64,000 nucleotides of DNA from Gammaproteobacteria bacterium (lineage in GTDB: Bacteria; Pseudomonadota; Gammaproteobacteria; GCA-2400775), in assembly GCA_013151045.1 (NCBI GenBank), contig JAADIY010000038.1:311-64310 (forward strand), read 5' to 3'. The notes under the pieces were generated by a model. The model saw only the letters and a program-made list of their open reading frames with translations, was not told the DNA's origin and made no database searches. Shown here piece after piece: positions 42,368 to 64,000 of the stretch. Positions within the stretch are counted from its first letter, which is position 1. Every line of letters starts with the position of its first letter. A program made the translations under genes and the position numbers.

Positions 42368-43381
42368 CTAAGCAACACTCAATTCGCTTAGCGGCCAACG
42401 TGGCCGCACATCAGTGCCGTTACTGGCATTTGGATTCAATTCAAAACGTCGAAAACCAGCATAAGCAATCATGGCACCATTGTCGGTACAAAATTCATTT
42501 CGCGGAAAATACACCTCTACCGATGATTGCTGGGAATAATCCGCAAACCGTTGGCGCAAGGAATGATTGGCGCTGACACCACCAGCGATAACAAGCTGCT
42601 TAAGTTGTGTCGCGTCTAAAGCTCGCCGACATTTAATCAACAAGGTATCTACCACTGCATCTTCAAAGGCACGCGCCACATCGCGTTTATCCTGGTCATT
42701 ACCGTCAGTCTTTCTAAATGTCGTTAAGGAATGAGTTTTTAAGCCGCTGAAGCTAAAATCACAACCAGGCCGGTTAGTCATCGGCCGTGGAAAACGAAAA
42801 CGATCAGGGTTACCATCAACAGCCAACTTGGCTAAAGCAGGACCACCAGGGTAATCAAGGCCTAACATTTTTGCCGTCTTATCAAAGGCTTCACCAGCAG
42901 CATCATCAACCGACTCACCCATTAATTCATATTCGCCGATCCCATCAACACGCACCAACTGCGTATGCCCACCCGACACCAATAAGGCAACAAAGGGGAA
43001 AGTAGGCGCTTGCTCTTCAAGCATTGGCGCTAATAAGTGCGCCTCCATATGATGAATTGGCAATGCCGGTATATCTAAAGCAAATGCCAAAGACCGCGCA
43101 AACGACGCTCCTACCAATAATGCACCAATTAAACCTGGGCCAGCGGTATAAGCAATCGCGCTTATATCAGCACGCTGTCGATTAGCAGCAGACAATACTT
43201 CATTAAATAAAGGTGTTATGCGCCGCACATGATCACGCGATGCTAATTCCGGAACAACGCCTCCGTGCTCCTGGTGTAGATCAATTTGGCTGTGTAAACA
43301 ATGCGCAAGCAAGCCTTGTTCGCTATCGTACAAGGCCAAACCCGTTTCGTCGCAGGATGTTTCTATTCCTAAAATCAACAT
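42368..43381 (-). CDS. tsaD: tRNA N6-adenosine threonylcarbamoyltransferase TsaD
   Basis: 337 aa Kae1/TsaD ([19 protein letters not shown]). Confidence 0.95.
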
Positions 43382-43385
43382 AACA

Positions 43386-43844
43386 TTAGCCGTGGCATTC
43401 GCTCACCGCCTTATCATCCGTATTACCTTGCAACCAACGACTCTGCTCACCGTGATGCTCTTGCTTCCAAAATGGCGCCTTATGCTTTAGATAATGAATG
43501 ATATAGCGACAAGCATCAAACGCTTGCGACCGATGTGTTGACCACACAGCAACTAATACCAAAGCATCTCCAGGCTCAACCTTGCCGTAACGATGCATGA
43601 TCAAATAATCATCCACCTGCCATTGCTTGGTAGCCGCATCACAAACTTTTTCTATTTCTTGCAAAGCCATTTCTGGATAACATTCAATCGTCATGGCATC
43701 GACAGGAAAATCTTCGTGCATATCACGCAGGCTGCCAACAAAAGTCACAGCCGCCCCAGACTCACCTGGCTTACGACATTGCTCTTCGTACTCTTGTAGA
43801 CGCTGGTACGGTAAAAACTCAAACTCTTGTAGCACAACAGGCAT
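43386..43844 (-). CDS. moaE: molybdopterin synthase catalytic subunit MoaE
   Basis: 152 aa MoaE family; follows moaD. Confidence 0.85.
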
Positions 43845-43845
43845 T

Positions 43846-44103
43846 TTAGCCCCCTGTCACTGGTGGGAAAAATGCGATTTCATCACCGTCATTTATCCTG
43901 GTATCTAACGAGGCATAATCTTGATTCACTGCGACTAAAATATTACTCGGCAACTCAAGAGAAGCGTTAAGTTGCGCCCAAACTTCGCTAGCACTGCAAC
44001 CACATTCCGGCACTTGGCACTGTTGCTCCGCCTGCCCGACATGCTCTCTTAAGGATGCAAAATATTTAACCGTTACTGACATAATATTTAGGGCGAAACC
44101 CAA
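43846..44103 (-). CDS. moaD: molybdopterin synthase sulfur carrier MoaD
   Basis: 85 aa ending in GG (…PPVTGG) ubiquitin-like carrier. Confidence 0.85.
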   Translation of the reverse strand: MGFALNIMSVTVKYFASLREHVGQAEQQCQVPECGCSASEVWAQLNASLELPSNILVAVNQDYASLDTRINDGDEIAFFPPVTGG

Positions 44104-44597
44104 TCGCTGCTTTTACCGCCGGTCTTTTTTTGCACGTGCACACCACCAATAACCATGGTCTTATCTACTGCTTTACACATATCGTAAATAGTCAGCAATG
44201 CAATCTGCACTGCTGTTAACGCTTCCATTTCTACACCTGTTCGCGCCTGACAGCGAACCACCGCTTGGCAGATCACTTGCTGCTGATCCGTATTTAACTC
44301 AAACAAAACGTCGACTTTAGACAACGGCAAAGTATGACATAGGGGTATTAAATCAGCCGTGCGCTTTGCCGCCATAATGCCAGCGATACGCGCAACAGAA
44401 AGCACATCGCCTTTTTTATGATTGCCTGCAGCCAACAAATCGAATGCAACAGCAGACATGCTGATACAACCTTGCGCTGTCGCCTCGCGATCAGTCACGG
44501 CTTTATCACCGACATCAACCATGCGTGCTTCACCATCACTATTGATATGGCTTAATTTATTCTCAGGTTTTTTATGAGGAAACTCTGCCATCTTCAC
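44088..44597 (-). CDS. moaC: cyclic pyranopterin monophosphate synthase MoaC
   Basis: 169 aa MoaC (HIN/MVDVGDK motifs). Confidence 0.9.
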   Translation of the reverse strand: MKMAEFPHKKPENKLSHINSDGEARMVDVGDKAVTDREATAQGCISMSAVAFDLLAAGNHKKGDVLSVARIAGIMAAKRTADLIPLCHTLPLSKVDVLFELNTDQQQVICQAVVRCQARTGVEMEALTAVQIALLTIYDMCKAVDKTMVIGGVHVQKKTGGKSSDWVSP

Positions 44598-44614
44598 TCT
44601 TTTTAGTTAAAGGC

Positions 44615-45655
44615 TTACCCGCCAATTTGAGTCATGCTGATACGTGATACAGCAATTTTCGACGTGCTACGTTCACGTGCCTCAACACCATCTATCGCTT
44701 TTGCGCCAACCGCTGCTCTAATCTGAAAAAGCAACTGTTCATCGCTCGCATCTCTGCGCATTAAACCACGCAGATCATAATCTGTCCCAGAATACAGGCA
44801 ATTACGTAGCTGACCATCTGCCGTTATGCGAATGCGATTACAATTGCGGCAGAGGCTGCGCGTGAAAGCAGGAATTACCGCAACCGCGCCTTGGTAACCT
44901 TTTATACGATAATGATGATGCTCTGTCTCGGAGCCTTTATCAGCCATCAAACCATCATAGAGACCATGTAGCTTGGCAACGATATCTTTAGCACGCATCA
45001 AATAATCGCCTTCACACCATAATTGCTTCGCATCAAAAGGCATAAATTCAATAAAACGCACCGTCACTTTATTATCGCGTGTGAGTTCACTAAATTGCTT
45101 TATCTCATCGTCATTAAACCCGCGCATAACAACAACGTTGATTTTTACGCTGTCAAAGCCTTTGGCTAGGGCAAGCTTAATATTATCTAATGTCTGCTCT
45201 AAACCAGCACGGCGGGTAATTTTTTTAAAACGATCAGCGTGCAAACTATCAAGACTGATATTCAACCCGGTCAAACCTGCTCGCTTTAACTGATCCGCGA
45301 CACGATGCAATAGCAAACCATTAGTTGTAAGAAAAACTTGATCAACACCAGGCGTATGCAATGATGTCGCAATCAACTCTGGCAAATCTTTACGCAAAGT
45401 CGGCTCGCCACCGGTAAAGCGTATTTTATTGACACCTGCCGCGGCTAAAACACGCACCAGGCGCGACACTTCATTTTTACTTAATAGTTTTTCAGGCGGC
45501 TGAAAATCAACGCCCTCTTCAGGCATACAGTAGGTACAACGTAAATTACAGCGCTCATTAAGCGCGATACGAGCGTAGTTAAATATACGCCCGTATCGAT
45601 CAAGCAATGCCGGAAGCATTGTAGATTTAACCGCGTGTTGCAACTTTAGTGGCAT
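44615..45655 (-). CDS. moaA: GTP 3',8-cyclase MoaA (radical SAM)
   Basis: CNLRCTYC radical-SAM cluster and C-terminal CxxCxxxxxxxxxxxxxC; start may be a downstream ATG (~45619). Confidence 0.9.
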   Translation of the reverse strand: MPLKLQHAVKSTMLPALLDRYGRIFNYARIALNERCNLRCTYCMPEEGVDFQPPEKLLSKNEVSRLVRVLAAAGVNKIRFTGGEPTLRKDLPELIATSLHTPGVDQVFLTTNGLLLHRVADQLKRAGLTGLNISLDSLHADRFKKITRRAGLEQTLDNIKLALAKGFDSVKINVVVMRGFNDDEIKQFSELTRDNKVTVRFIEFMPFDAKQLWCEGDYLMRAKDIVAKLHGLYDGLMADKGSETEHHHYRIKGYQGAVAVIPAFTRSLCRNCNRIRITADGQLRNCLYSGTDYDLRGLMRRDASDEQLLFQIRAAVGAKAIDGVEARERSTSKIAVSRISMTQIGG

Positions 45656-45720
45656 TTTCTAATGACATAACAAATGATTTATCGCATTCTATCGTAGAGA
45701 GACACTATACAAACGTAAAC

Positions 45721-46488
45721 ATGCTGAATGATGATCAATTAGTACGCTATAGCCGCCAAATCTTACTGCCAGATATCGACATATCCGGCCAAGAAAAGTT
45801 ACTGAGCGCGCATGTACTCATTATTGGGCTAGGCGGGCTAGGCTCTCCTGTTGCCATGTACCTTGCTGGCGCCGGCATCGGCCGTATCACTCTGGCCGAC
45901 TTTGATGTCGTTGATATCACTAATTTGCACCGACAAATCGCCCATGGCACTGAAGACATTGGCACCAACAAGGCACACTCAGCCAAAGCGACCTTAAACA
46001 ATATTAATCCTGATATCGAAATCGACTGCATTGACAACCATATTGATGAGAACGCATTACTGCAACATGTGTTAGACCAAGCCGTCGACGTTATCGTTGA
46101 CGCAACCGATAATTTCACCAGTCGCCATGCCATCAACCGTATTTCAATTGCCAGTAACATCCCTTTAGTTTCCGGTGCAGCAATACGTATGGAAGGCCAA
46201 ATTAGCGTATTCGATCCTCGCGATAGGAGTAACCCCTGCTACGCCTGCCTTTATTCAGAGGACGGCGACAATAACGAAACCTGCTCCCAAGCCGGCGTTG
46301 TTGGCCCCGCTGTTGGCGCTATTGCCAGCCTACAAGCCATGGAAACCATAAAATTGATCGCCAATTTTGGCCAAACTTTGGTCGGCCGAGTTCAGCTCTT
46401 TGACGCCAAACAATGCGAATGGCGCAGCCTAAATCTCAAAAAAGATCCAAAATGCGGTGTTTGTGGCGAAAAAAGCCTTAATTTTTAA
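45721..46488 (+). CDS. moeB: molybdopterin-synthase adenylyltransferase MoeB (ThiF/E1-like)
   Basis: ORF from 45649 but homology starts MLNDDQLVRYSRQI (45721); GxGxxG nucleotide motif, C-terminal CxxC pair. Confidence 0.88.
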   Translation: MLNDDQLVRYSRQILLPDIDISGQEKLLSAHVLIIGLGGLGSPVAMYLAGAGIGRITLADFDVVDITNLHRQIAHGTEDIGTNKAHSAKATLNNINPDIEIDCIDNHIDENALLQHVLDQAVDVIVDATDNFTSRHAINRISIASNIPLVSGAAIRMEGQISVFDPRDRSNPCYACLYSEDGDNNETCSQAGVVGPAVGAIASLQAMETIKLIANFGQTLVGRVQLFDAKQCEWRSLNLKKDPKCGVCGEKSLNF

Positions 46489-46517
46489 CAAAACTGCCCG
46501 CTAAGCAACAATAGAAA

Positions 46518-46545
46518 TTGCATCTCGGTGCAAAACGCCTATAAT
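46518..46545 (+). promoter_or_regulatory. sigma70-type promoter candidate for rpsU-yqeY-dnaG-rpoD operon
   Basis: TTGCAT (46518-46523) - 16 bp - TATAAT (46540-46545), ~80 nt upstream of rpsU ATG. Confidence 0.5.
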
Positions 46546-46625
46546 TACCGGCCTTTCCTTGTGCGTAGCCTTGCCTTTTGGTTAGCTGAAGGAAAACCTG
46601 TTAAACCTCTGGAATTGAGATTTTT

Positions 46626-46841
46626 ATGCCATCAGTACGAATGAAAGAAAACGAACCGTTTGAAGTTGCAATGCGTCGCTTCAAGCGTACTTGCGAAAAA
46701 GCAGGCACTTTGTCTGAAATCCGTCGTCGCGAGTTTTATGAAAAGCCAACTGCCGTTCGCAAGCGCAAAGCCGCTGCAGCAGTTAAGCGTCATGCTAAAA
46801 AAGTCGACCGTGAAGTTGCGCGTCGCGTTCGTTTGTATTAA
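46626..46841 (+). CDS. rpsU: 30S ribosomal protein S21
   Basis: 71 aa, near-identical to S21 consensus ([21 protein letters not shown]...). Confidence 0.96.
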
Positions 46842-46870
46842 TCACCCCCTCTATATAAGCTTCTAGTCAC

Positions 46871-47323
46871 GTGTCTGCCCTCAAAAAGCGCATCACTGAA
46901 GACATGAAAGCTGCTATGCGCGCCAAAGATAAGGCGCGCTTAAGCGTTATTCGTATGACTTTAGCGGCAATCAAGCAACGCGAAGTCGATGAACGTATAG
47001 AACTTGATGATAGCCAAGTAACGGCCATTATCGACAAAATGATCAAACAGCGCCGTGATTCTGTTGCTCAATTTCAAGACGCTGGTCGCGACGAACTCGC
47101 TGCTATTGAAACTGCTGAAATTGCCGTATTGCAAGACTATATGCCACCTGCAATGAGCGACGACGATATCGCCGCTGCCATTGATAAAGCTATTGCCGAT
47201 ACCGGTGCCAGCTCAATCAAAGATATGGGCAAACTGATGGGCGTGCTCAAACCGCTGCTCCAGGGACGTGCTGACTTAGGCGCCGTTAGCGGTACGATCA
47301 AGCAAAAACTGGCTGCGCTATAA
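46871..47323 (+). CDS. yqeY: GatB/YqeY domain protein
   Basis: 150 aa; classic position between rpsU and dnaG; GTG start. Confidence 0.85.
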   Translation: MSALKKRITEDMKAAMRAKDKARLSVIRMTLAAIKQREVDERIELDDSQVTAIIDKMIKQRRDSVAQFQDAGRDELAAIETAEIAVLQDYMPPAMSDDDIAAAIDKAIADTGASSIKDMGKLMGVLKPLLQGRADLGAVSGTIKQKLAAL

Positions 47324-47408
47324 GCGCTGCTCCATTCTAAGCACTTCATTCTCAAGCAAATCTTACATACTGGCTGACAGCCGGACACCCGCAACATAGA
47401 ATTACCTC

Positions 47409-49175
47409 ATGGCGGGCAAAATTCCTCAACAGTTTATCGATGACATTTTGTCTCGCACCGACATTGTCGAGCTCATTGACGCACGCGTCACACTAAAAAA
47501 AGCGGGTAAAGACTTTCAGGCCTGCTGTCCTTTTCACGGCGAAAAAACACCCTCATTTACGGTAAGCCAAAGCAAACAGTTTTATCACTGTTTTGGCTGC
47601 GGCGCTCATGGCACTGCTATTGGCTTTCTAATGGAATACGACAATCTCGATTTTGTCGAAGCCATACATGAACTTGCTGACACGCTGAGCCTAGAAGTAC
47701 CACGCGAGGACGGCGGCACACAGCAACGCCCATCGACGAACACTAAAGCCTTGTTCTCGCTTACCGGGCAAGCCAATGATTTTTACCAAAAACAATTACG
47801 CGAACACCCGCAAAAAGATAAAGCCGTCGATTATCTTAAGGGTCGCGGACTCAGCGGCCAGATCGCTAAACGCTTCGCAATAGGCTTTTGTGCCGATGAA
47901 TGGCGCGCTATTCAAACAGCCCTAGGCTCAGACGAACACCTGCGTGAGCAGCTCGTCGAAGTCGGGCTACTGATCAAAAAAAGTGCCAATGATTACTATG
48001 ATCGCTTTCGCCATCGCATCATGTTCCCCATTCGAGATTTACGTGGGCGGGTCATTGGCTTTGGTGGGCGCGTACTGAGTGACGATACGCCAAAATATCT
48101 CAATTCACCTGAAACTCCGCTATTCCATAAAGGTAAAGAGCTTTATGGTTTTTATGAGGCCTGCCAGAGTAATCGCAACCTCAGCCAGGTCATCGTTGTT
48201 GAAGGCTATATGGATGTCGTTGCACTGGCCCAGCACGGTATCACTTATGCGGTGGCTACGCTTGGCACGGCAACCAGTGGCGAACATATCGAACGCTTAT
48301 TTCGTAAAGTCGATGATATCGTTTTTTGTTTTGATGGCGATCGCGCCGGTCGTGATGCTGCCTGGCGCGCGCTGGAAAACGCCTTACCGACCCTGCGCGA
48401 GGGCCGTCAAATTCGTTTTCTGTTCTTACCAGACGGCGAAGACCCAGACACCTTGGTGCGCAAAGAAGGCAATGAACGTTTTAACCAACGCATTACGCAA
48501 GCCAATACCTTGTCACAATATTTGTTTGATCACTTAAGTACCGACGTCGATGCCAGCAGCATTGACGGCCGAGCACGGCTCGCCGAGGCCACCAAGCCTC
48601 TATTAAAGAAACTTCCACAAGGTACGTTTCAGCAGATGATGATTGCCGAATTAGCACAACGCACACGCATCGACGTCAATCTGCTCAGCGTCGACATTAG
48701 CGGCGACACAGTAAAACAGACACAAATCAATCAACGCCAGCAAGCAACTATTACGCAACGCGGTCCATCGCTAGTACGCAAAGCCATTACAGTATTGTTA
48801 CATCGCCCTAATCTTGTCACAGCAGCAACTGATACCAGCTGGCTAAAAGATATCGATCAAGCCGGCATTGTTTTATTACTCGACCTACTTGAACTCTTGC
48901 GCCAGCAACCCCACCTTAGTACGGGTGGTATTTTGGAGCACTGGCGCGACACCGAACACGGTCGACATCTCGCCAAGCTGGCAGCACAACCGGCGCTACT
49001 CGAAAGTGAAGCGCTGGCAGCAGAATGGGACGATGCATTAACTCGACTCAAGAGCGCGGCCAGTGAAGCTCAGCTTGAAAGACTTGAAGAGCGAGATCGC
49101 CTAGGTATCGCCAACAATGACGAAAAAGCCGAGCTTAAGCGACGCTACCAAGAACTGGGGCAACGCAAAGACTGA
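47409..49175 (+). CDS. dnaG: DNA primase
   Basis: 588 aa; zinc ribbon CPFHGEKTPSF, TOPRIM (EGYMDV..DGDRAG). Confidence 0.95.
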   Translation: MAGKIPQQFIDDILSRTDIVELIDARVTLKKAGKDFQACCPFHGEKTPSFTVSQSKQFYHCFGCGAHGTAIGFLMEYDNLDFVEAIHELADTLSLEVPREDGGTQQRPSTNTKALFSLTGQANDFYQKQLREHPQKDKAVDYLKGRGLSGQIAKRFAIGFCADEWRAIQTALGSDEHLREQLVEVGLLIKKSANDYYDRFRHRIMFPIRDLRGRVIGFGGRVLSDDTPKYLNSPETPLFHKGKELYGFYEACQSNRNLSQVIVVEGYMDVVALAQHGITYAVATLGTATSGEHIERLFRKVDDIVFCFDGDRAGRDAAWRALENALPTLREGRQIRFLFLPDGEDPDTLVRKEGNERFNQRITQANTLSQYLFDHLSTDVDASSIDGRARLAEATKPLLKKLPQGTFQQMMIAELAQRTRIDVNLLSVDISGDTVKQTQINQRQQATITQRGPSLVRKAITVLLHRPNLVTAATDTSWLKDIDQAGIVLLLDLLELLRQQPHLSTGGILEHWRDTEHGRHLAKLAAQPALLESEALAAEWDDALTRLKSAASEAQLERLEERDRLGIANNDEKAELKRRYQELGQRKD

Positions 49176-49273
49176 TACGAAGCTACCCAGAGCAAGAAAA
49201 TATCAGGTATAATTGACGGTTCTATTTTTTAAACTCAACTTTCATACGCCGCTAGGCAAGGTTACACACATCG

Positions 49274-51103
49274 ATGGATGCCCAACAGCAGCAATCCCAG
49301 CTTAAGATATTGATTGCAAAAGGAAAGGAACAAGGTTACCTGACCTATCGCGAAGTTAACGATCATCTCCCCGACACTATTGTCGACCCAGAACAGATCG
49401 AAGACATCGTCAACATGATCAATGACATGGGTATCGAGGTGCACGAGATTGCACCTGACGCCGATAGCCTCATTATGAAAGACGCTGTTGATGAAGACAG
49501 CGCCGACGAAGCCGCCGCCGCGCTTGCTATCGTAGGTAGCGAGTTTGGTCGTACAACTGACCCAGTACGCATGTATATGCGCGAAATGGGAACCGTTGAA
49601 TTGCTAACACGTGAAGGCGAAATTCGTATCGCCAAACGTATTGAAGCCGGCTTGTCACAGATGATGTCGGCACTAGCGACGTTTCCTGCGACTATCGAGA
49701 CCATTCTAGGTGACTACGCGCTTTATCAAAATGAAGAGAAGCGCTTGTCAGATATCATTGTCGGCTTTTTGAGCGACGCAGATCTCGACACAACGGCTAT
49801 TCCTAAACCTGCGGCAGCACGTACCGCCGAAGAAAAGGAAGAAGACGAAGTAGAAAAAGAAGCTGGCCCTGACCCAGAAATGGTTAAAGACTATTTCTCA
49901 AAACTCGCTAAGCTCTTTGATAAGGTGCAAAAATCACGCGCTAAAAATGGTAAAGACCATAAAACCACCGTTAACGCTGTCAATGATCTCGACGATTGTT
50001 TTAAACGTTTTAAATTCATCCCAAAATTTTCAGAACGCTTGATTGTTGCACTGCGCGAAATTGTTGACGTCATTCGCAAACATGAACGCAATATTATGCA
50101 TCTGTGTATCAACGAAGCACGCATGCCACGCAAAGCCTTTATTACCAGCTTCCCTGATAATGAAACCGATCTTGAATGGTTAGATCGCGAAATTGCTTCA
50201 GGTGCCAAATATTCTGAGGTATTGAAAGAACACAAAGACGTTATTGCTGGTGAACAAGCACACCTCGCCGAACTAGAGAAAAAATGGAATTTCAGCATTA
50301 ACGAAATTAAAGAAATCAATCGTAAAATGTCGATTGGTGAAGCTAAGGCGCGTCGCGCCAAAAAAGAAATGATCGAAGCAAACTTGCGTTTGGTTATTTC
50401 TATTGCAAAAAAATACACCAACCGCGGCCTACAATTCCTCGATCTCATCCAAGAAGGCAATGTTGGTTTAATGAAGGCGGTTGATAAATTCGAATACCGT
50501 CGTGGTTATAAATTTTCAACCTATGCCACATGGTGGATTCGCCAAGCCATTACACGCTCAATTGCTGACCAAGCGCGAACGATTCGTATCCCAGTACATA
50601 TGATTGAAACCATTAATAAGCTCAATCGTATTTCACGCCAAATGCTACAAGAAATGGGCCGCGAAGCAACACCAGAAGAATTGGCTGAACGCATGGAAAT
50701 GCCAGAAGACAAAGTCCGTAAGGTATTAAAAATCGCCAAAGAGCCCATCTCGATGGAAACCCCAATCGGTGATGATGAAGACTCACACCTTGGCGATTTC
50801 ATCGAAGACTCTAACGTCATGTCACCGCCCGAATCAGCCACCTTTGAAGGCTTACGCGAGCAAACACAAAACGTACTAGAAAGCCTTACCGCACGTGAAG
50901 CTAAAGTTTTACGCATGCGTTTTGGTATCGGCATGAACACCGACCACACGCTAGAAGAAGTAGGCAAACAGTTTGATGTAACACGTGAACGTATACGTCA
51001 AATCGAAGCCAAAGCACTACGTAAATTGCGCCATCCAACACGTTCAGAACGTTTACGTAGCTTCCTCGACAGTGATGGCAACCCCACAGGCAACGGCACT
51101 TAA
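49274..51103 (+). CDS. rpoD: RNA polymerase sigma factor RpoD (sigma70)
   Basis: 609 aa with regions 1.1, acidic NCR, 2 ([37 protein letters not shown]), 3, 4. Confidence 0.97.
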
Positions 51104-51143
51104 AGAGTCTTTGTCGCTATAACACCATAAGCCTCCCGGTTTC

Positions 51144-51220
<77 letters not shown>

Positions 51221-52021: not shown

Positions 52022-52384
52022 ATGAGCGATGCACAGCAGCTAACCAAAGGAATCGCCTCGCATGGCATGTGGAAACAGCGTCTAATTGATGCAATCAAAA
52101 GTGGAAAAAGTGACTGGAAACCTGCAATTGTATGTAAAGACGATCAATGTGAATTTGGTAAGTGGCTATATTCATGCTCAGCACAGGATAAAGCTGGCGC
52201 TCACTATAGAAACGTCAGAGAATTACATACTGATTTTCATAAAAATGCTGCAAACGTATTAGAGCTGGCATTAGAAAATAAACAAGCTGAAGCTGAAAGT
52301 GCCATCCAATATGGCAGCAAATATGCCAGCACTTCTTCAGAATTGACTAAAGCTATGATGAATTGGAAGAAGGAATTATCTTAA
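52022..52384 (+). CDS. standalone CZB (chemoreceptor zinc-binding) domain protein
   Basis: 120 aa; HGMWKQRL…CKDDQCEFGKWLY…HYRNVRELHTDFH matches CZB H-x3-W … C-x-F/LGKW … H … H-x2-H signature. Confidence 0.7.
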   Translation: MSDAQQLTKGIASHGMWKQRLIDAIKSGKSDWKPAIVCKDDQCEFGKWLYSCSAQDKAGAHYRNVRELHTDFHKNAANVLELALENKQAEAESAIQYGSKYASTSSELTKAMMNWKKELS

Positions 52385-53777: not shown

Positions 53778-53825
53778 ATGAACCATATTGCTGGACCTGA
53801 TATCTACTGTTATCCTCATGAATGA
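53778..53825 (+). other. 15-codon upstream ORF (MNHIAGPDIYCYPHE) with strong SD, stop overlapping start of downstream GGDEF-EAL gene
   Basis: AAGGAG at 53762-53767, ATG 53778; TGA 53823-53825 overlaps main ATG 53818 (ATGAATGA). Confidence 0.35.
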
Positions 53826-56130
53826 GTCTATTTATGAGGTGACAATGGAGGGTTTAAGTAATTCCACCACACTGCTGCTTGAAGAAATTCAGCAGTTACG
53901 TGCCGAGCTAAGCACTACCCAGCTAGAAGCACAAAAGCGCGCAACCGAACTTGATAAAAGCGAAGAACGCTTGTCTCTAGCCATGCGCTGGGCCAACGAT
54001 GGCTTATGGGATTGGAATATTGAAACTAACGAAGTCTATTACTCTCCTCGCTGGAAAAGCATGTTGGGCTATGAAGAGAATGAGCTTGATAACAATATCA
54101 ATACTTGGGAGAACCTAGTCCACCCTGACGATAAAAACATGGCAATACAAGCCGCTCAGGATTATCTAGCGGGTCGAGCAGACTCATTTGAAATTGAAAT
54201 ACGAATGTCACACAAAGATAATCGCGATATTTTTGTACTGTCCCAAGCATTCATAGTCGGTCGCGAGCCTGATAATAAGCCAGTTCGCCTCGTTGGCACT
54301 CATATCGATATCACTGAGCGCAAAAAAACAGCAGCGTTCAATAACAATAATGCCAAAATTCTAGAGATGATTGCCATAGGGAATCCCGCATCTGATATCT
54401 ATAATGCTATTGCCTTAATGTATGAAGACCGTCACCCAGGCTTACGATGCTCCATGCTCGAGCTGCATGGCAGCAAACTTATGCACGGGGGAGCGCCAAG
54501 CTTACCTAGCGAATATTGTAAAGCCTTGCACGGCCTAGAAAATGGCCCCAGTGTTGGCTCATGTGGAACATCGACTTTCAGCGGGAAACGTGTTCTTGTC
54601 GAAAATATTGAAACAGACCCTAAATGGGGAAACATTAAACACCTAGCATTGCCTCATGGTATGCGGTGTTGCTGGTCCGAGCCGATTAAAAGCTCTTCTG
54701 GAGACGTGCTAGGCGCGTTTGGTATGTACTATAACCACCCTGCGTTACCAAATGAAGACGAATTAAATGACCTTAGTTCTGCGGCACGACTAACAAGTAT
54801 TGTTATGGAGCGAGATCAAGCTCAAAAGCGTATAAGAGCATTAGCTTATAGCGATGAATTGACTAAACTTTCTAGTCGCGCCCACTTTTACCTGCACCTT
54901 GAAGCAGCCATCAAAACCTCTAGTCGATACAAACATCGTTTTGCCCTGCTATATATTGATTTAGATGGCTTCAAGGGTATTAATGATAGTCTTGGCCATG
55001 ATGCTGGTGACTTACTCCTGATAAATATTGCAAAACGTTTGCAAAGCACCTGTCGTGACATTGACTTTATTGCACGCCTCAGTGGCGACGAGTTTTGTAT
55101 CCTCATTAGCGAGCTAAGTGATAATTATACAGCTGCCAATGTGGCGCAACGGTGTCTTAATACTGTATCACAACCTGTCGAACTTTCTACGAGAAAGCAT
55201 ACACCAGCATGCAGTATTGGCATCGCGCACTACCCTGATGACGGCAACGACCTAGCAAGCTTAATCAAGGCAGCAGACACTGCTCTTTACGCAGCAAAAA
55301 AAAATGGCAAGAACCAATACGCTTTCTATAAACCAGAGCTCACCCGTCAAGCCGAACATCGTTTCCTAGTTGAACAATATCTACGAGAAGCAATTGAAAA
55401 TCAGCAACTTTCTCTCGTCTATCAACCACAAATCAATCTTAAAACCGGAAAAATTATCGGCGTCGAGGCATTATCACGCTGGGATCACCCGATATTAGGC
55501 GGAGTTCCACCGGTTGAATTTATTGCCACAGCTGAAAGAATCGGCATGATTAAACCGCTCACTGAATGGGTACTAAGCACCGCTTGCCAACAAGCCGTTG
55601 CCTGGAAAAAAGAAGGCTTTCCTGTACCGCGTATGGCAATCAATATTTCGTCAAGTCATTTTATCGATAAAGAAATTGTGCCACTAATCAAACGAATTAT
55701 TAATGAAACAGGAATAACCCCGACCGAATTAGAATTGGAAGTGACCGAAAGCGTTGTCCAAACTGACCCTAGAAACCTTTCCATTTTTCAAAACTTAAAA
55801 AGTCTTGGTATTCAACTAGCCATTGATGATTTCGGAACCGGCTATTCATCTTTTGCTTCTCTTAAACACCTTAAAGTTGATTGCCTAAAAATAGACAAAT
55901 ATTTTGTTGATGATATGCTTGACGATGAAAAAGCATTACTCCTTATTGGCTCAATGATAGAGATGGGCCATCAGTTGGGTTATAGCATTGTTGCCGAAGG
56001 GGTGGAAACGTCAGAACAGTTTTATACTTTAAAAAATCTAGGTTGCGATACTGCTCAGGGATATTTATTTAGTAAACCCGTCAAAGCTCAGGCTATTGCT
56101 AAATTAATAAAAAATGATTATAACATTTGA
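53818..56130 (+). CDS. PAS-GAF-GGDEF-EAL signalling protein
   Basis: ORF from TTG 53788; first ATG 53818 (MNESIYE). PAS (WDWNIETNEVYYSPRW), GAF-like region, GGDEF (RLSGDEF), EAL (EALSRW, DDFGTGYSS). Confidence 0.88.
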   Translation: MNESIYEVTMEGLSNSTTLLLEEIQQLRAELSTTQLEAQKRATELDKSEERLSLAMRWANDGLWDWNIETNEVYYSPRWKSMLGYEENELDNNINTWENLVHPDDKNMAIQAAQDYLAGRADSFEIEIRMSHKDNRDIFVLSQAFIVGREPDNKPVRLVGTHIDITERKKTAAFNNNNAKILEMIAIGNPASDIYNAIALMYEDRHPGLRCSMLELHGSKLMHGGAPSLPSEYCKALHGLENGPSVGSCGTSTFSGKRVLVENIETDPKWGNIKHLALPHGMRCCWSEPIKSSSGDVLGAFGMYYNHPALPNEDELNDLSSAARLTSIVMERDQAQKRIRALAYSDELTKLSSRAHFYLHLEAAIKTSSRYKHRFALLYIDLDGFKGINDSLGHDAGDLLLINIAKRLQSTCRDIDFIARLSGDEFCILISELSDNYTAANVAQRCLNTVSQPVELSTRKHTPACSIGIAHYPDDGNDLASLIKAADTALYAAKKNGKNQYAFYKPELTRQAEHRFLVEQYLREAIENQQLSLVYQPQINLKTGKIIGVEALSRWDHPILGGVPPVEFIATAERIGMIKPLTEWVLSTACQQAVAWKKEGFPVPRMAINISSSHFIDKEIVPLIKRIINETGITPTELELEVTESVVQTDPRNLSIFQNLKSLGIQLAIDDFGTGYSSFASLKHLKVDCLKIDKYFVDDMLDDEKALLLIGSMIEMGHQLGYSIVAEGVETSEQFYTLKNLGCDTAQGYLFSKPVKAQAIAKLIKNDYNI

Positions 56131-57323: not shown

Positions 57324-59735
57324 CTACTTTATATCACCTGAATCAGCATGATGAGCGATGCCTTTATTGGTCTCGATAAAGTTCACAATCGAGGCTTCAT
57401 CAAACTCATCAAATGTTTCAAGCTTGGCCCATGCAGTCACAGCAATTTTTGATTCCATTAGCGGATACGGCGCCAAAATTACATACTCAGGATAACGTTT
57501 TAAAATATCCTCAAGTTTGGCAACCGTATCAGGGCAGGCTTTACGACAATTATATTGAATCACCACCCCCCCAACCTTTAAGTTATAGACTTGCAATGCT
57601 AACGGCAACGGCACTTGATAAGCACCCCAATCGGCGATGAAGGGTAAATGTGCCCCTGAAGTTGGCGGGTTGCTACTATAAGGTTCATGCGTTTCAAGAG
57701 GATGGTAAATATACTCACCGCTTGCTTGTGATGCAGTCTTACCCTTCTCGGCACCGTCTTCTTTCTCAGATAATTTTGGTACACGCCGGGTATCCCCCAA
57801 CAAGGCCAAGTCAAATTTCTCGTCAGGAATACCGCTGTTTATCTTAACCTGATCGATCTTTACCTCTTCGGTCCTGCCATTATCGAGCACACGCTCTAAT
57901 CGACCAGGCATGGAATACATTTTGTCTATTTTTTTATAATCGTAAAATTTAGTTTCAATGATACCGCCAAACTGCTTGCTTTCTGTTTGGTGCCCTTCCG
58001 CTTTGTTTACCGGAAATTTTTCTATCAGGTTTGTCGGGTAAGCTGTATTTGCGTCCACCCAAAGTTGCGGCACGGCTTGCCCTGTTTCGTTGGCGCCAAT
58101 AACATAGTAGCGATGTGGTTCATGGCCTTCTGCATGCTGATGATCGTGATCTGTATGAGAGCCGTCTTTTTCTTCTTTTTCCTCAAATTCCATGACTACA
58201 TCCACTGCGATGCCACTTCGAAGATAAGAACTGCCGGGTACATCACCGGCCAAACGCTGTATTGCCTCATCAACCGATAGACTTGATAAGCCATAGAGCG
58301 AAGATAATAAATTTTGTCGCGGTGTCACCCAAAAACGACCGTCCTCAAGTATGGATACACTTGTCCCAGCTTGCGCCAGGCGCACTAGCCCACCTTCTGC
58401 TTCGGTTCTTAACCAGTTTGGAGCTTTGTAATATTGCATTCGCTGAGAAAGCGTCGAGGGATTTTTGGCTGGCTGTGTCTCCACATCCTTTTCTTCACCA
58501 TTCTCTTTTGCACTGACGCCAACTGAATCCACTTTCCAGGTTGCCGTTTCGCGCCATGAAAGGTCAGAATACGGTGCGCTCACACTTTGCATTTGCTTAA
58601 TAATCTTCTTCACTAGTTGCCGCGAACGTCCCTCGCTGTTTAGCAAGTCATCACGGACACTGAGCGGCACCTGTACTAACTCGACATCCATCGGCACATC
58701 ACCCGTCGAAAAGGATCGAAGAGTTTTCAGGGTCTTGCCATCTAATTCAATGAGTTCACGGTTGAGTTGATCCAACACATAAAGCTTATCGCCATCGAAG
58801 CTCCCCTCGACTAGACCACCATTGATCGTAGCAGCGTTAATTTCTGTAATAACCGGCCACGGGCGCACTGAGAAATCTGTCTCATAAAGTACAACATAAC
58901 TTTTTTTGATACCTAAGCCGCGCCAACATAAAACTGCCATTTTAGTCTCATCGGGAGACAGCAATATTGCCTGTGGTGCAGAACAAGTTGGAACTCCACG
59001 ACCATCACCATGCACATTAATCAGGCTAAGCCCGTTGGTCTCGCTATCGGCTGTCAACAAAAAAGGCTCTTTTGCCGACACAATAATACTGGTCGGGCCA
59101 AGCCCCGTACGTTGAGTGGCAGGACTAACTGGTGATGGCGTCGAATTTTTTAAATCATAGGGATAGTTAACAATGTAAGAATAGCGTTCACTTTCAACTT
59201 TAGATTGCGGATCAAAACGCGCCATATAAAACCCCGCGCTATCCTGCCGTTGAACCAGATCGTAGATCTTGTTTATTTCTGTGACCTTAACGCCGAGCCT
59301 ATCACCATTTTTAGGGTCAATTTTATAAAGCCCTGAACGCGGCCAACTAAACGTAACAAACTGCTCTCCATCATTGCTAAATATACCTGGCCCACGATAA
59401 GGAAGCACATGTTTAATTTCATGATCAGTTAGGTCAATTATCGCTGTTGACTCCGAGTACCAATGCTGAGCCAATAGTTGTTTACCATCCGGCGAGGAAA
59501 CCAAACGCCAAGGACCCGCACCCGCATAGATCTTGCGTAGCGTTTTTCCAGATGAAAGATCAACAACCTGAATGTTGTTATTCGCTGCATTAGCAATGTA
59601 AGCTAATGTAGTTTTCTCAATGGGGGAAGAGACAGAAGAATTCGTTACCTCAGCAGCGCTTGCTCCGATACCAACAAAAAGTGTCAACATTGTTAAAAAT
59701 GATATTAGAACTCGCATAAACTTCTTACACCTCAC
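57324..59735 (-). CDS. secreted multidomain protein: YVTN-type beta-propeller + LolA-like middle domain + His-rich linker + C-terminal DUF3105-like domain
   Basis: 803 aa; signal peptide (MRVLISFLTMLTLFVGIGASA); N-terminal repeats typical of YVTN beta-propellers; HTDHDHQHAEGHEPH linker; C-terminus (…SGAHLPF…VYNLKVGGVVIQY…YVILAPYP…IAVTAWAKLE…) matches DUF3105 shape with NLEHG-like motif altered. Confidence 0.75.
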   Translation of the reverse strand: MRCKKFMRVLISFLTMLTLFVGIGASAAEVTNSSVSSPIEKTTLAYIANAANNNIQVVDLSSGKTLRKIYAGAGPWRLVSSPDGKQLLAQHWYSESTAIIDLTDHEIKHVLPYRGPGIFSNDGEQFVTFSWPRSGLYKIDPKNGDRLGVKVTEINKIYDLVQRQDSAGFYMARFDPQSKVESERYSYIVNYPYDLKNSTPSPVSPATQRTGLGPTSIIVSAKEPFLLTADSETNGLSLINVHGDGRGVPTCSAPQAILLSPDETKMAVLCWRGLGIKKSYVVLYETDFSVRPWPVITEINAATINGGLVEGSFDGDKLYVLDQLNRELIELDGKTLKTLRSFSTGDVPMDVELVQVPLSVRDDLLNSEGRSRQLVKKIIKQMQSVSAPYSDLSWRETATWKVDSVGVSAKENGEEKDVETQPAKNPSTLSQRMQYYKAPNWLRTEAEGGLVRLAQAGTSVSILEDGRFWVTPRQNLLSSLYGLSSLSVDEAIQRLAGDVPGSSYLRSGIAVDVVMEFEEKEEKDGSHTDHDHQHAEGHEPHRYYVIGANETGQAVPQLWVDANTAYPTNLIEKFPVNKAEGHQTESKQFGGIIETKFYDYKKIDKMYSMPGRLERVLDNGRTEEVKIDQVKINSGIPDEKFDLALLGDTRRVPKLSEKEDGAEKGKTASQASGEYIYHPLETHEPYSSNPPTSGAHLPFIADWGAYQVPLPLALQVYNLKVGGVVIQYNCRKACPDTVAKLEDILKRYPEYVILAPYPLMESKIAVTAWAKLETFDEFDEASIVNFIETNKGIAHHADSGDIK

Positions 59736-59997
59736 TAAAAACTAATTTGAACTACTGATACTAAACATGAGCATATGACACATATAAATGTAATGTCATG
59801 TACTGAAGGTTTGCCCATGAATGAAATACGTAAAGAATCTTATTTCGCGCAGCTTAAGAAGTGGACAACTCAAGCACTAAGTGCTCTATTAGCTTGCTAC
59901 TTTGTAATAATCGATCATAGCAATGTGTCAGTATTTGGGCGGGCAACTGATAACAACTGCAGATGTACATTAACCTTTCAGTTAAAAATCTATGTCC

Positions 59998-60027
59998 TGA
60001 TCGGTTGCTAATATTAGCAACCGATCA
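59998..60027. repeat. perfect 30-bp palindrome (15-bp arms, no spacer) between cytochrome gene and beta-propeller gene
   Basis: tgatcggttgctaat|attagcaaccgatca; 44 nt downstream of cytochrome stop; possible terminator/attenuator or protein-binding site. Confidence 0.6.
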
Positions 60028-60070
60028 CCGCCCATCTCTTCATAAAACTGACACTGTCCACATACCGAGA

Positions 60071-63000
60071 CTAACGTCGCCGTCCGTGACGGCCACCACT
60101 TCTCGTTGTCGTTGTCGTCGCAACGGTAGTAGTAGCAGGAGCAGGAGCGCTTGTTGACGCAAGTGCAGCAGATTGCCCGGTAGCAAAACCAAGTGGCACT
60201 GAAGTATCACCTCTGCCATTAGTACGGCTAGTGGCAGTCTGGAAGCTCCAGCTAACTGCTGCATTACTACAGTTATTTGAAAAATCACAAATACCTGCCG
60301 CTAATCGTGCTGTATAAGTAGCCCCCGTGCGTAAGAAGATATCATGAGCAAACAAGGCCCATGTACCATCACCGATCTGATCAACAAATGCCGGTACTGG
60401 TAACCCACGCGAATCGACCAGGGTAAACGTTCTATTGTCTACTCCTGTCACTGGCTCGTTAAAAGTCACTTTAGCAACAAAGTTGCTGTAAACACTGCTT
60501 GCGCCATTTACCGGATAAGTTTCTGTAACACTCGGTGCTACATTATCCGCAGCCAAATTAATCACCCAGCTCTTCACCTCCATAGGTACAGGTGGCGCGC
60601 CTTCAACCACTGCAGGCTCAGTAGATGGCGTACGCCCACCATCACATAGTCCCTTCAGAACACAAGGTTCTAGCACTGGCAAAGGAGCGTTTGCCGGATC
60701 AGCGAGATACGCTGCTGACTCTTGGTCCAGGTCAGTGTTAGCCAAATTACCCAGGAACTCCTCAGCAATAATCGCCTCTAGAGACTGGTAATACATCGCC
60801 GCAGTAACAGCAATAGGGCCCACCGCATTAGCTGGAATGATGACCGAATAACGATCACTCAGATCTGCAACTGCGGCAGCCATAGGCAATGGGCTCAAAC
60901 GTGTGTCAATCAGAAACGAATCATCAAACAGATCGCCATCACCATCGACATCCATATACTGTGGAATACCGCGCGGGTTATTTCGATCAATCGCCACACC
61001 GCTAGCATCAATAGGCACGCCATCATCGTTAGTGACTATATTGACCGCCGTTGCATAAGCCAGCGCCAGAGTCGGGCAGCCATCACCCAGCGTAGCAACT
61101 GCTCTCATTATGCGAGCATAAGGATCTGGTGATCCAGCTCTCACACTCCAGTCACACCCTGGGAAGTTAGGGTCGACCATCTCTTCGGTGGTGAAGTAAC
61201 CGACACCGGTAGAAGTGCGATCCCACACTGAGTCGTGAATGTCTAACTCAGCACCTGTGGCCGTATCAAAAGCTCTCACTGCGACCCAGCTAATACGCCC
61301 TTCAGGAAAACCTGTGGGGAAATTATGACCGCTACCATCGTTAGTCACCGTCAATGTCGATATCCCTACAGTGTCACCAGCATTAGCGGTAACCGCTGCT
61401 GACAGATCCAATGACACGGCATTACGTAGACGATCCCAGGCCATCCGCGAATGATGCGTCGGTGTGCCTGTACCCGTCGAGTTGTAATAGGCCCAATGGA
61501 ATTTACTACCTGAGCTAGCAGACGTAAAGCTGGCACTCGATAGCACTGGATAGGGTTGCACCGCACCACTGCTGCCACCTCCGCCATGGCGACGACCACC
61601 ACCGCCAGTAGCAACCGTAGCACCGAGAAGGTTGGTTACATATGCATTGCCACCGACGAAATGATGGGTGTATAAAGCGTCACGCACAGGCCCACGAAAG
61701 CCAACCACCCCTCTAAGCGGTGCAATTGACCTGCCGTTGCTATACAAAGTCTGGGTCGTACCAGGCTGACCAAAATCCTGCTGCATATGACAGGTTTGAC
61801 AATCACGCTTAAAAGCGGGATCAAAGTTTGCCTGCGTTCTGCCAGTTACGGGATCAATACGGTCTGCATAACGACTATTTGACCACTCGCTATAGGTTCG
61901 CTCAATCGGAAAGCCACCTACCCATTGTTCTAATGGGTTAAGAACCGTGACTGGATTAGTCACATCATGACAAGCACCGCAAAACTCGGAGCGTTCAAAT
62001 TTGACATGATAGTAACCTTCATGCCCGCCATGACGACCTCCGCCTCCGCCGCCACGACGGCCACCACCGTGACCACCACCAGCAAAACGATCTTGGTTAG
62101 CTATCGTGGTATCAAAAACGTCGCTGATGTACGGATCAACACCGCCAACAGCGCCATTCCATATTGGTCCAAAACGCGCTGGTCGGTTAATAGCATTGGG
62201 CGACAAACGGAACGTACCACCACCAATACCGTAGCCTAAGTTAGGGCTGTTCGCATCCGGAATGTTACCTACGTTACCTGAATTACCCAAGATACTCGAA
62301 CGTGAACCACTACCCTGAGAAGGTATATATTCCACCCCTGATTGCACATAGGATGAATAAGGTGTGCGCTTGGATTCTGCATTGGTATGACAGACCGCGC
62401 AAAATATACCGCGCTTACCACTTGCAGTATTGCGATAAAGCGACTGCGCCGAGTCTATGACTGTAGCATAGGCTCTGTCAGTGCCATTTGATGAGGTGGG
62501 ATCATAGTTGGGGATGACCGCTGCGTGCTCAAAATTACTGCCATCACCCAGGTCATCTATATTGACGCCGGCAAGTGGCACCGCATCAATATAGTTAGAG
62601 GGCATATGACAACGCGAGCAAAAGTCATCAAAAAGCGAACCGGACCCTGTCGTAGTCGCCGTCGCACCACCTCCGAGATTAAATCTAGATGAAGTGCCGT
62701 CGATAGCAAACGGGTTGAGGTCATTGCAAGCATAGGCCTCGGTACCGTCTATCGCCCGGCCTTGCGCATTAAGGTTCTCAAGCACATCGCCGCAACCGTC
62801 GGTCGCTGTCGCGCGTGCCGTTAACAAAAATACGGCTTGCCAGGCTGGATCGCGCCAGGCATTGGCCTTCATAGAGCCATTCCATTCACTGAAAATACGA
62901 TCATGACAACCTGAGCACTGGCCAGGATTGTTAACATTATTCCAGTCGCTCTCAAAGGGCGGCGCATGGCCTGTGAAGCCACCAAAAAAACCCGCTTCTT

Positions 63001-63139: not shown

Positions 63140-63440
63140 ATTAATTCTCCATTTGGGTTTATTCCACTCAAACCCACTTAACTTTAATTCAGCCTCATTT
63201 CTTAGCCAAATTTTATTTCCGTTGATTAATGTATCAGCTTTCGTTACCAATAAGCAAATCAAGTTTGCAACAACCCTGTCCAAACTCGGGCATAGACCGC
63301 CAGCCAAAAATTACTAGGAGTGCACGACATGAATACATCAGCAACAATACGCCAACTGTTTCAGTTTATCCGAAGCCATTCTGAAAAATGGATTTTGCCA
63401 GCAATAATTCGTCGGCACTGCAACAGTGAATTTTTTCTAA

Positions 63441-64000
63441 CTAACGGTTCACCGAGCTTTTTATCAAAAAATATTTGTTAGTCATCTTAGGAAAATCACC
63501 AATCAAATTACGCAACTTATCAAGATCACTAACATCACCTCGATATGCGATACGATCAAACATTGCAGCCAATGCTAATGTAGATTGAGCCAACTCAGGC
63601 CTCTCCACAGCAACGCGTCTCGCAAAGCTAGATACCGTTTCACCTTGGCTTCGTTTTATTCCTAAATTCTCAGCCTTCCTAATAAATTTATCTATCAAAC
63701 GAATTGCAATAGGCAATGGGCGCTTGCGATTAATAAGATAAAAATAGAGAAACAGAGCCAAACCAAGTGCTAAGCTAGCAATAACAACAATCATCGCAAT
63801 ACGCCATGGCTCAGCACCACCAAATATTTTTTCTAAAACACCTTTTTGTGATTGACGATCATAACTAACCACCCATCGATTCCACACATAACCGACAGCA
63901 TCAACACGTTGTCGTAGCGATTTCATCCAAGGAAACTCACCATACGCGCCGCTGCCAACAAGCTGTAAATCTGACTCACTTAAGGCATCGGCAATTCCAT
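63441..64000 (-). CDS. DUF4129-like domain membrane protein (5' end beyond window)
   Basis: Frame remains open from 63926 to window edge (…GIADALSESDLQLVGSGAYGEFPWMKSLRQ…); TM helix (IAMIVVIASLALGLALFLYFYL) then C-terminal domain with DUF4129-like pattern (…TVSSFARRVAVERPELAQSTLALAAMFDRIAYRG…). Confidence 0.6.
   Translation of the reverse strand, partial: GIADALSESDLQLVGSGAYGEFPWMKSLRQRVDAVGYVWNRWVVSYDRQSQKGVLEKIFGGAEPWRIAMIVVIASLALGLALFLYFYLINRKRPLPIAIRLIDKFIRKAENLGIKRSQGETVSSFARRVAVERPELAQSTLALAAMFDRIAYRGDVSDLDKLRNLIGDFPKMTNKYFLIKSSVNR

Follow-up and report, generated by a model that had tools for sequence, protein, structure and literature searches.

A secreted protein in which a beta-propeller, a LolA-like domain and a DUF3105 domain are joined is encoded in the 64,000-nucleotide window analyzed here (contig JAADIY010000038.1 of the gammaproteobacterial assembly GCA_013151045.1, positions 311 to 64,310). 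Because this three-domain protein is always encoded beside one family of five-haem cytochromes in four phyla, it probably serves the pentahaem cytochrome as a dedicated helper or subunit. Its gene and the cytochrome gene have been inherited together as a pair across these phyla. With regard to its role, we tentatively favor that of a dedicated periplasmic partner which assists in the assembly of the cytochrome or handles thiols or metals for it. The features discussed below are listed in table 1.

Linkage between the Three-Domain Protein and a Pentahaem Cytochrome

In all 16 homologous loci which have enough flanking DNA, drawn from four phyla, a homologue of the cytochrome (40–57% identity) was found to be adjacent to the fusion gene and on the same strand. 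The gap between the two genes is usually 8–20 nt, or the genes overlap. Pairwise divergences of the fusion protein and the cytochrome were strongly correlated across 13 loci (r = 0.97, Mantel p about 2e-4), and the fusion protein diverges faster (mean distance 0.49 vs. 0.36 for the cytochrome). A preliminary description of this DNA had suggested a partnership with the pentahaem cytochrome and had proposed that homologues be sought beside multihaem cytochromes in other genomes; this comparison was carried out, and the partnership is strongly supported by it. It is very improbable that the adjacency is incidental and that the three-domain protein works independently of the cytochrome. Some cytochromes do lack the partner, and the two genes of the window are separated by a long stretch in which a promoter-like site precedes the partner gene, but the pair is kept in every informative locus, mostly with less than 20 nt in between.

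Two tandem cytochrome paralogues accompany a single partner gene in Nitrospirota loci and in one Acidobacteriota locus (L013 3198–9826, L018 2612–9764 and L012 4617–10978). The order is reversed in L012, where the partner gene precedes the cytochromes.

The three-domain gene lies, as described before, between the cytochrome gene and a gene for a tetratricopeptide repeat (TPR) protein, but conservation of the TPR neighbor is confined to Gammaproteobacteria and Nitrospirota, where it recurs downstream in six loci. This protein matches PF23914 (TPR_CcmH_CycH, the TPR region of cytochrome-c biogenesis protein H) with 47.8 bits against a gathering score of 42, a match of limited specificity, since higher scores were obtained with generic TPR models. 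In one gammaproteobacterial lineage, the gene pair adjoins ccmA, ccmB, ccmC and ccmF. Beyond the pair, the only conserved genes found were clade specific (the ccm genes, a Reg_prop propeller, an FGE-sulfatase and a response regulator).

Architecture of the Three-Domain Protein

The open reading frame (ORF) has 803 codons from its GTG, from which residues are numbered here. End-to-end alignment with 76 database proteins of 707–870 amino acids (94–100% of the length, 92–34% identity) indicates that it is a real and intact gene. Its true start is probably the ATG at 59717 (M7), which would give 797 amino acids, since it is preceded at 9 nt by a GAGGTG Shine-Dalgarno sequence and MRVLISFL opens the sequences of the closest homologues. 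A Sec-type signal peptide can be read at the N-terminus, confirming the secreted product previously described. About 40% of the fusion-family homologues, many of them in other phyla, have a lipobox (LxxC) in place of the Sec peptide; the window protein has none.

Both profile and fold support the YVTN-type beta-propeller that the preliminary description had placed in this protein. A single TIGR02276 YVTN repeat passes the NCBIfam cutoff (29.7 vs. 27.85 bits). With a profile of 38 family members, matches were obtained to 1l0q, an archaeal propeller of the YVTN type (E = 8.5e-21), and to 5c2v_B, hydrazine synthase beta (E = 3.9e-8). PF21783 (YNCE) remained below its gathering score in the Pfam scan (14.3 vs. 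27.1 bits). An AlphaFold2 (AF2) model based on the family alignment (predicted local distance difference test, pLDDT, 84.4; predicted template modeling score, pTM, 0.85) contains 28 strands at residues 41–357, and therefore seven blades; after these come two helices, then a middle domain rich in beta-strands and last a C-terminal domain of the alpha/beta type. When the full model was compared by Foldseek, 1l0q_A ranked first (E = 8.4e-19). Fold and repeat type are like those of the YVTN/YncE-type seven-bladed propellers (the 1l0q surface-layer protein, Escherichia coli YncE and hydrazine synthase beta), but here the propeller is joined to other domains in a larger protein and carries family-specific invariant residues, which include W76, W92, R114, W131, D175 and RPWP (291–294) on its surface.

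The middle domain is LolA-like at the level of fold only, because the sequence-based search gave no match: LolA, LolB, LolA_like and DUF4367 were all without a match at E ≤ 1 in the Pfam scan. Thus, of the LolA/DUF4367-like domain proposed earlier, the fold stands, whereas membership by sequence profile does not. A separate model of residues 385–803 (pLDDT 81.3) was compared with the PDB using Foldseek, and the top 50 matches belonged throughout to the LolA superfamily, with TM-scores (template modeling) of 0.4–0.57. These matches (E = 3.8e-7 to 1e-3) include 3bk5 (the best, E = 3.8e-7), 3buu, 9tp6, LolA3, NE2245, DUF1329 (4z48), LolA, LolB and VioE. Unlike LolA and LolB, however, the domain sits between two others and bears a clade-specific His-rich insertion, and nothing indicates that lipoproteins are its cargo. 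Its invariant motifs are TPRQ (471–474) and LAGDVPGS (495–502).

The His-rich stretch, HTDHDHQHAEGHEPH at residues about 526–540, is present as reported but is not the interdomain linker it was taken for. In the model it lies between strands 514–518 and 542–546 of the LolA-like domain, with pLDDT below 50, and the true interdomain linker is formed by residues ~651–669. Insertions of 16–22 residues occur at this place in 6 of 77 fusion-family members, all from the clade of the window. On the alignment it is thus a lineage-specific insertion within the LolA-like domain, and a metal-binding role for it is only putative.

Signature and Cysteine Pair of the DUF3105 Domain

The C-terminal domain, earlier called DUF3105-like, was borne out by a strong match to PF11303 (75 bits against a cutoff of 25, E = 7.6e-21, residues 685–791); the domain by itself reached 79.6 bits. 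Its predicted secondary structure is alpha-beta-[CX3C]-alpha-beta-beta-beta-alpha. Standalone DUF3105 proteins (~180–200 amino acids, with an N-terminal membrane anchor) are 48–55% identical to it over the domain and have in common with it the PPTSG, APYP and TAW motifs, the CPxxC pair and a terminal DHH, whereas here the domain is C-terminal to a propeller and a LolA-like domain, and H39, H50 and E53 of the family are replaced by Tyr, Tyr and Lys.

To quantify these changes, we aligned 236 standalone and 82 fused domains to one hidden Markov model (HMM). H29 is present in 98% of standalone and 33% of fused domains (50% of the latter have Arg) and is kept in the window as H696. H39 is found in 75% of standalone and 85% of fused domains (Y706 in the window), H50 in 96% and 80% (Y717), and E53 in 99% and 70% (K720). 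A Tyr at the H50 position is seen in only 4 of the 82 fused and 2 of the 236 standalone domains, so that the altered signature pointed out before is both real and rare. On the other hand, the CX3C cysteine (Cys) pair is present in 88% of standalone and 95% of fused domains and is retained in the window as C730 and C734; H683, H795 and H796 (the last two forming the terminal HH) are also retained. Judged from this alignment, the window protein is the extreme of a relaxation of the His/Glu signature which runs through the fused family, and the cysteines are the conserved element. That the pair is more conserved in fused than in standalone proteins argues for a working DUF3105 domain, whose activity is a prediction. 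Since in this clade the ancestral His/Glu site has degenerated (Tyr in place of His, Lys in place of Glu) and the Cys pair has been kept, the cysteines would be the working part if the domain is active here.

Two explanations for the motifs were rejected. HNLEH is not an inverzincin-like HxxEH metalloprotease motif, because most standalone members have Asp in place of the second His. Nor does the His-rich insertion, as a rule, make up for the loss of H50, since the homologue P0002 has both the insertion and H50.

Distribution of the Fusion and Other Contexts of DUF3105

A phmmer search with residues 385–803 against 1.84 billion representative sequences returned 1969 matches, nearly all of them standalone DUF3105 proteins of 150–250 amino acids, and a LolA-like domain together with DUF3105 was found in about 20 representatives. 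The view that DUF3105 is usually a small standalone protein and that its fusion is uncommon therefore holds. Genome matches of the fusion came from Thermoanaerobaculia and other Acidobacteriota, Nitrospirota, Candidatus Entotheonella and several gammaproteobacterial metagenome-assembled genomes (MAGs), the nearest being the North Pond MAGs NORP174 and NORP163 (87–94% identity). As far as these sequences indicate, the architecture is rare but old, and it is conserved across four phyla. The family is already present in public data, unnamed and unannotated. A literature search on DUF3105 yielded one passing mention and no proposed function, and searches on DUF3105, on YVTN proteins with multihaem cytochromes and on pentahaem cytochromes yielded no account of a module of propeller, LolA-like and DUF3105 domains.

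In Candidatus Entotheonella palauensis, the homologue (P0049, L009 9965–11854) ends after the LolA-like domain and lacks DUF3105, and tblastn detected none downstream. Thus, DUF3105 is dispensable in at least one lineage.

DUF3105 was also found in other fusions. P0396 and P0423 combine SurA_N, a PPIC-type peptidyl-prolyl isomerase and TPR with a C-terminal DUF3105, and the TPR region of P0423 matches TPR_CcmH_CycH with 54 bits; P0452 and P0412 combine an AhpC-TSA/Redoxin (TlpA-like) domain with DUF3105. Such Rosetta-stone fusions tie DUF3105 to extracytoplasmic protein folding and thiol redox. The P0423 gene is located among housekeeping genes, like that of a general PpiD-type chaperone.

The neighbors of standalone DUF3105 genes are heterogeneous, including selA-selB (L025 and L028), a merB/arsR/HMA cluster (L027) and an NDH-2-like gene. 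In the two Binatia-like contigs (L025 4017–5249 and 6001–6558; L028 3591–6272), two small unknown genes lie between the standalone gene and selA-selB downstream of it. In L025, a gene for a 410-amino acid multihaem cytochrome with Cytochrome_C554/MtrC-like matches is inserted divergently beside it.

The Partner Cytochrome

The start of the cytochrome gene is probably the ATG at 63139 rather than the listed TTG at 63307, because the former agrees both with the alignment of homologues and with a signal peptide (MDVKAHWLRALAVSG…AHA/RHGE). More than 627 matches were found to this family, all annotated as "Ig-like domain" (immunoglobulin-like) or hypothetical proteins, which makes it far larger than the fusion family; they are mostly from uncultured Acidobacteriota, Nitrospirota and subsurface Gammaproteobacteria. 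A solved relative was not found: the sole profile match was the pentahaem cytochrome c552 of T. tepidum (5ze8, E = 0.027), and it covers only the first haem motif. Matches to ExtKL/MccSep were also weak and limited to the first haem motif (9 of 22 cytochrome members, best E = 0.003), as was that of the window cytochrome to NF040886 (16 bits against 250), which places it outside this family.

Two motifs in the non-haem part, GSGHxFPTGFPEGR and HHFxGGN (window 61295–61336 and 61646–61666), are invariant in 22 of 22 aligned cytochrome family members, and so are four non-haem cysteines. These residues, which match no known family, could form an additional metal or active site. Low-complexity insertions rich in Gly, His and Arg (GGGHGGGRRGGGGGGRHGGHEG, GGGGRRHGGGGSSG and a C-terminal GGRHGRRR; 62015–62080, 61565–61606 and 60074–60097, minus strand) are found only in the clade of the window, and their lengths differ between close relatives (P0078 and P0080). 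This clade therefore has low-complexity insertions in the cytochrome and a His-rich insertion in the partner alike.

One alternative for the three-domain protein arises from these comparisons. It might carry a substrate that is hydrophobic or thiophilic (elemental sulfur or polysulfide, selenium or a soft metal, for instance), which would be accommodated in the LolA-like pocket, bound by the Cys pair and oxidized or reduced by the cytochrome. The weak matches of the haem region to c552 and to ExtKL/MccSep would fit, MccSep being a pentahaem polysulfide reductase whose structure has been compared by its authors with that of T. tepidum c552 (10.1101/2025.11.18.688581). The location of standalone DUF3105 genes beside selA-selB and in the merB/arsR/HMA cluster, together with the profile match of DUF3105 to the copper-sensitivity suppressor ScsC given below, points in the same direction. 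However, the cytochrome matches extend over the first haem motif only and are far under family cutoffs. In the haem domain, a conserved Cys or Sec of an active site was not identified, the standalone contexts are inconsistent with each other, and the operon of the window is not flanked by genes for sulfur, selenium or metals. We thus consider a carrier function improbable.

Possible Role in Cytochrome Assembly

Synteny, co-divergence, the TPR neighbor, the Rosetta-stone fusions, the Cys pair and hints on the fold of DUF3105 are in favor of a dedicated assembly or thiol/metal-handling partner. In such a scheme, the propeller and LolA-like domains may provide a docking or holding platform for the ~1000-amino acid cytochrome or for a hydrophobic ligand. 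DUF3105, which may have a thioredoxin-like fold with CPxxC(P) where thioredoxins have CXXC, may carry out a thiol-based step during or after assembly, in which cysteines would be kept reduced or isomerized, or a thiophilic metal passed on. The TPR protein may play a CcmI-like role as an apocytochrome chaperone.

Parallels exist with the System I machinery for cytochrome c maturation, in which CcmG/H act with CcmI, and with NrfEFG, which are encoded next to NrfA. A domain with a thiol pair and a TPR protein beside a multihaem cytochrome resemble CcmG/H and CcmI, or NrfEFG beside NrfA, and the TPR neighbor, like CcmI or NrfG, passes the CcmH/CycH model. However, the three-domain protein has no homology to CcmG, CcmH or CcmE, the operon contains no haem lyase gene, and the haem motifs of the cytochrome are canonical.

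With regard to the fold, a DUF3105 profile of the fused family gave a single match in the PDB, the DsbA-like thioredoxin-fold protein ScsC (4gxz, E = 0.0016), in which CPxxC was aligned with CPYC. The C-terminal half was also compared by Foldseek with a library of viral structures, chosen because LolA-like folds are scarce there and LolA matches had swamped the DUF3105 part in the PDB search; at least six thioredoxin, TrxA or oxidoreductase matches were obtained over 85–108 columns (root-mean-square deviation 3.6–4.5 Å, probability 0.5–0.8, weak E-values of 0.08–1). Thioredoxin, DsbA and Sco families were not found when 16 DUF3105 sequences were scanned against Pfam at E ≤ 10. As in ScsC/DsbA, TlpA/ResA/CcmG and Sco, the Cys pair is predicted to lie at a strand-to-helix junction, but the window motif C-R-K-A-C is CX3C and so differs from the CXXC of thioredoxins, and DUF3105 has an extra N-terminal His-rich segment. 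The CxxxCP spacing presumably resembles that of Sco. By every test run, the three-domain protein falls outside the Sco, TlpA and ScsC families as well as the System I accessories (CcmG/H with CcmI, and NrfG), and the likeness concerns a possible way of working.

Several observations weigh against an assembly role. The assignment of a thioredoxin fold to DUF3105 is not secure: a broader DUF3105 profile matched ribosomal protein uL23 (E = 0.0015–0.008) beside ScsC (E = 0.0089), because of which we claim homology to neither, and an hhalign comparison with a small TlpA/CcmG alignment brought the Cys motifs together at a nonsignificant probability of 2.6%. The TPR gene is absent from Acidobacteriota loci. 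The window cytochrome has exactly five CXXCH motifs, all canonical, and therefore no need for a special lyase is evident. Cytochromes with no partner nearby exist. Some adjoin a NarI-like cytochrome b together with a small cytochrome c, some ACIII and a caa3 oxidase, some FeoAB and DHOR genes, and others stand alone; in a neighbor-joining tree they are interspersed among the paired ones, and the partner is therefore not generally required. A class of residues separating paired from unpaired cytochromes, such as extra cysteines, was not found; there were seven weak positions, none of them a Cys. Finally, the strong conservation of the large propeller and LolA-like surfaces would fit a permanent subunit equally well.

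The main rival to an assembly partner is indeed a permanent subunit of a periplasmic cytochrome complex, serving as a docking, anchoring or substrate-binding module in which DUF3105 would be structural or decayed. The propeller and LolA-like domains would bind the cytochrome or a substrate, and in many lineages an N-terminal lipid anchor would tether the soluble cytochrome to a membrane. Translationally coupled gene pairs and their co-divergence are consistent with this, and so are the very large number of surface Trp, Arg and Pro residues that do not vary between phyla, the lipobox of so many homologues, the relaxed His/Glu signature and the fact that unpaired cytochromes adjoin membrane anchors instead, such as the NarI-like cytochrome b. 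Precedents include hydrazine synthase beta, the propeller subunit of a haem enzyme which the family profile matched, and beta-propeller (NHL) proteins, which have been reported to stabilize multihaem cytochrome complexes in gene clusters for extracellular electron transfer (10.1101/2022.05.06.490989). In the latter clusters, e.g., uet of Candidatus Tenderia, a propeller and an NrfG-like TPR protein are likewise encoded with multihaem cytochromes (10.1101/2022.05.06.490989), but both the propeller type and the cytochrome family differ from ours, a porin is not present here, and the NHL partners lack LolA-like and DUF3105 domains. On the other hand, a lipobox is missing from the window protein, fused members keep the Cys pair more often than standalone ones, closely related cytochromes have no partner, and in the window the two genes are set apart by a 335-nt spacer that contains a hairpin and a promoter-like site. 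Taken together, a permanent subunit appears somewhat unlikely, and a dedicated assembly partner is retained as our tentative choice.

A more specific form of the assembly hypothesis would regard DUF3105 as an unrecognized extracytoplasmic domain for thiol or metal maturation, and the fusion protein with its CcmI-like TPR neighbor as a private assembly system for a new family of ~1000-amino acid pentahaem cytochromes, in which the LolA-like domain holds a hydrophobic cofactor, for example haem, via H582. We consider this version rather doubtful.

Other Features of the Locus

The spacer between the cytochrome and partner genes (59736–60070) is 335 nt long, and among the loci compared, members of the NORP-like clade alone have such a long spacer (308 nt in L001). 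Its hairpin is followed ~10 nt beyond by a TTTTT run and may act as an attenuator or partial terminator which sets the ratio of cytochrome to partner.

FGE-sulfatase-domain (formylglycine-generating-enzyme-like) genes were found right after the TPR gene in 3 of 3 Nitrospirota loci, in two of which they are duplicated. In the window, a CZB (chemoreceptor zinc-binding) protein and a PAS-GAF-GGDEF-EAL protein are encoded near the operon on the plus strand (52022–52384 and 53788–56130), the GGDEF-EAL gene being convergent with the TPR gene; they may serve local c-di-GMP or zinc/redox signaling. The region 42368–51220 contains tsaD, plsY, dnaG, rpoD and a tRNA-Met gene (51144–51220). Because of these housekeeping genes, the cytochrome operon appears to be in the core chromosome and not in an obvious mobile element. 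The G+C content of the cytochrome gene is 0.51, compared with 0.42–0.45 in its surroundings. Upstream of it, a DUF4129 ORF (63441–63926) probably represents the C-terminal portion of a transglutaminase-like gene that is longer and runs past the end of the window.

Table 1. Features of the operon in the window, and FGE-sulfatase genes in three Nitrospirota loci (positions within each locus)
Feature	Position	Strand	Description or basis
TPR protein, membrane anchored, 221 amino acids	56650..57315	-	directly downstream of the three-domain gene; PF23914 match; start may be ATG 57297
Three-domain protein ORF	57324..59735	-	803 codons from GTG 59735, stop at 57324
DUF3105 domain	57345..57728	-	residues about 670–797; Pfam match, predicted structure
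Cysteine pair CRKACP (C730, C734)	57531..57548	-	strand-to-helix junction; family consensus CPxxCP
Altered signature YNLKVGG (717–723)	57567..57587	-	family consensus HNLE[D/H]GG
LolA-like domain	57786..58577	-	residues about 387–650; Foldseek and predicted structure
Flexible loop AEGHQTE with family-invariant H582	57981..58001	-	alignment and model
His/acid-rich insertion KEEKDGSHTDHDHQHAEGHEP	58116..58178	-	within the LolA-like domain; pLDDT <50; clade specific
Seven-bladed YVTN-type beta-propeller	58656..59624	-	residues about 38–360; profile, fold, AF2 model
Sec-type signal peptide MRVLISFLTMLTLFVGIGASA/AEV (…GASA/AEV)	59646..59717	-	read from sequence
Sigma-70-like promoter match ATGACA-18-TATGCT	59770..59799	-	upstream of the three-domain gene; consensus match only
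Perfect hairpin, 13-bp stem, GATCGGTTGCTAA-TA-TTAGCAACCGATC	59999..60026	-	45 nt after the cytochrome stop
Pentahaem cytochrome, secreted, ~1020 amino acids	60071..63139	-	partner gene; five CXXCH, large non-haem region, C-terminal Big_5 Ig-like domain
FGE-sulfatase gene(s), L013	13007..13981		
FGE-sulfatase gene(s), L018	12997..14889		
FGE-sulfatase gene(s), L020	4140..6442		

Implications

For DUF3105, a widespread domain with about 2000 representative clusters, the fusion family provides the first consistent context. Our results are hypothesis-generating both for this domain and for a large uncharacterized cytochrome family. If it is true that the three-domain protein is a dedicated assembly factor or subunit, co-expression of the two or three genes would be the practical route by which the cytochrome could be produced and characterized, and a role could be assigned to DUF3105. 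The clade of the window, in which the Cys pair is kept and the His/Glu signature is lost, would offer a natural separation-of-function variant.

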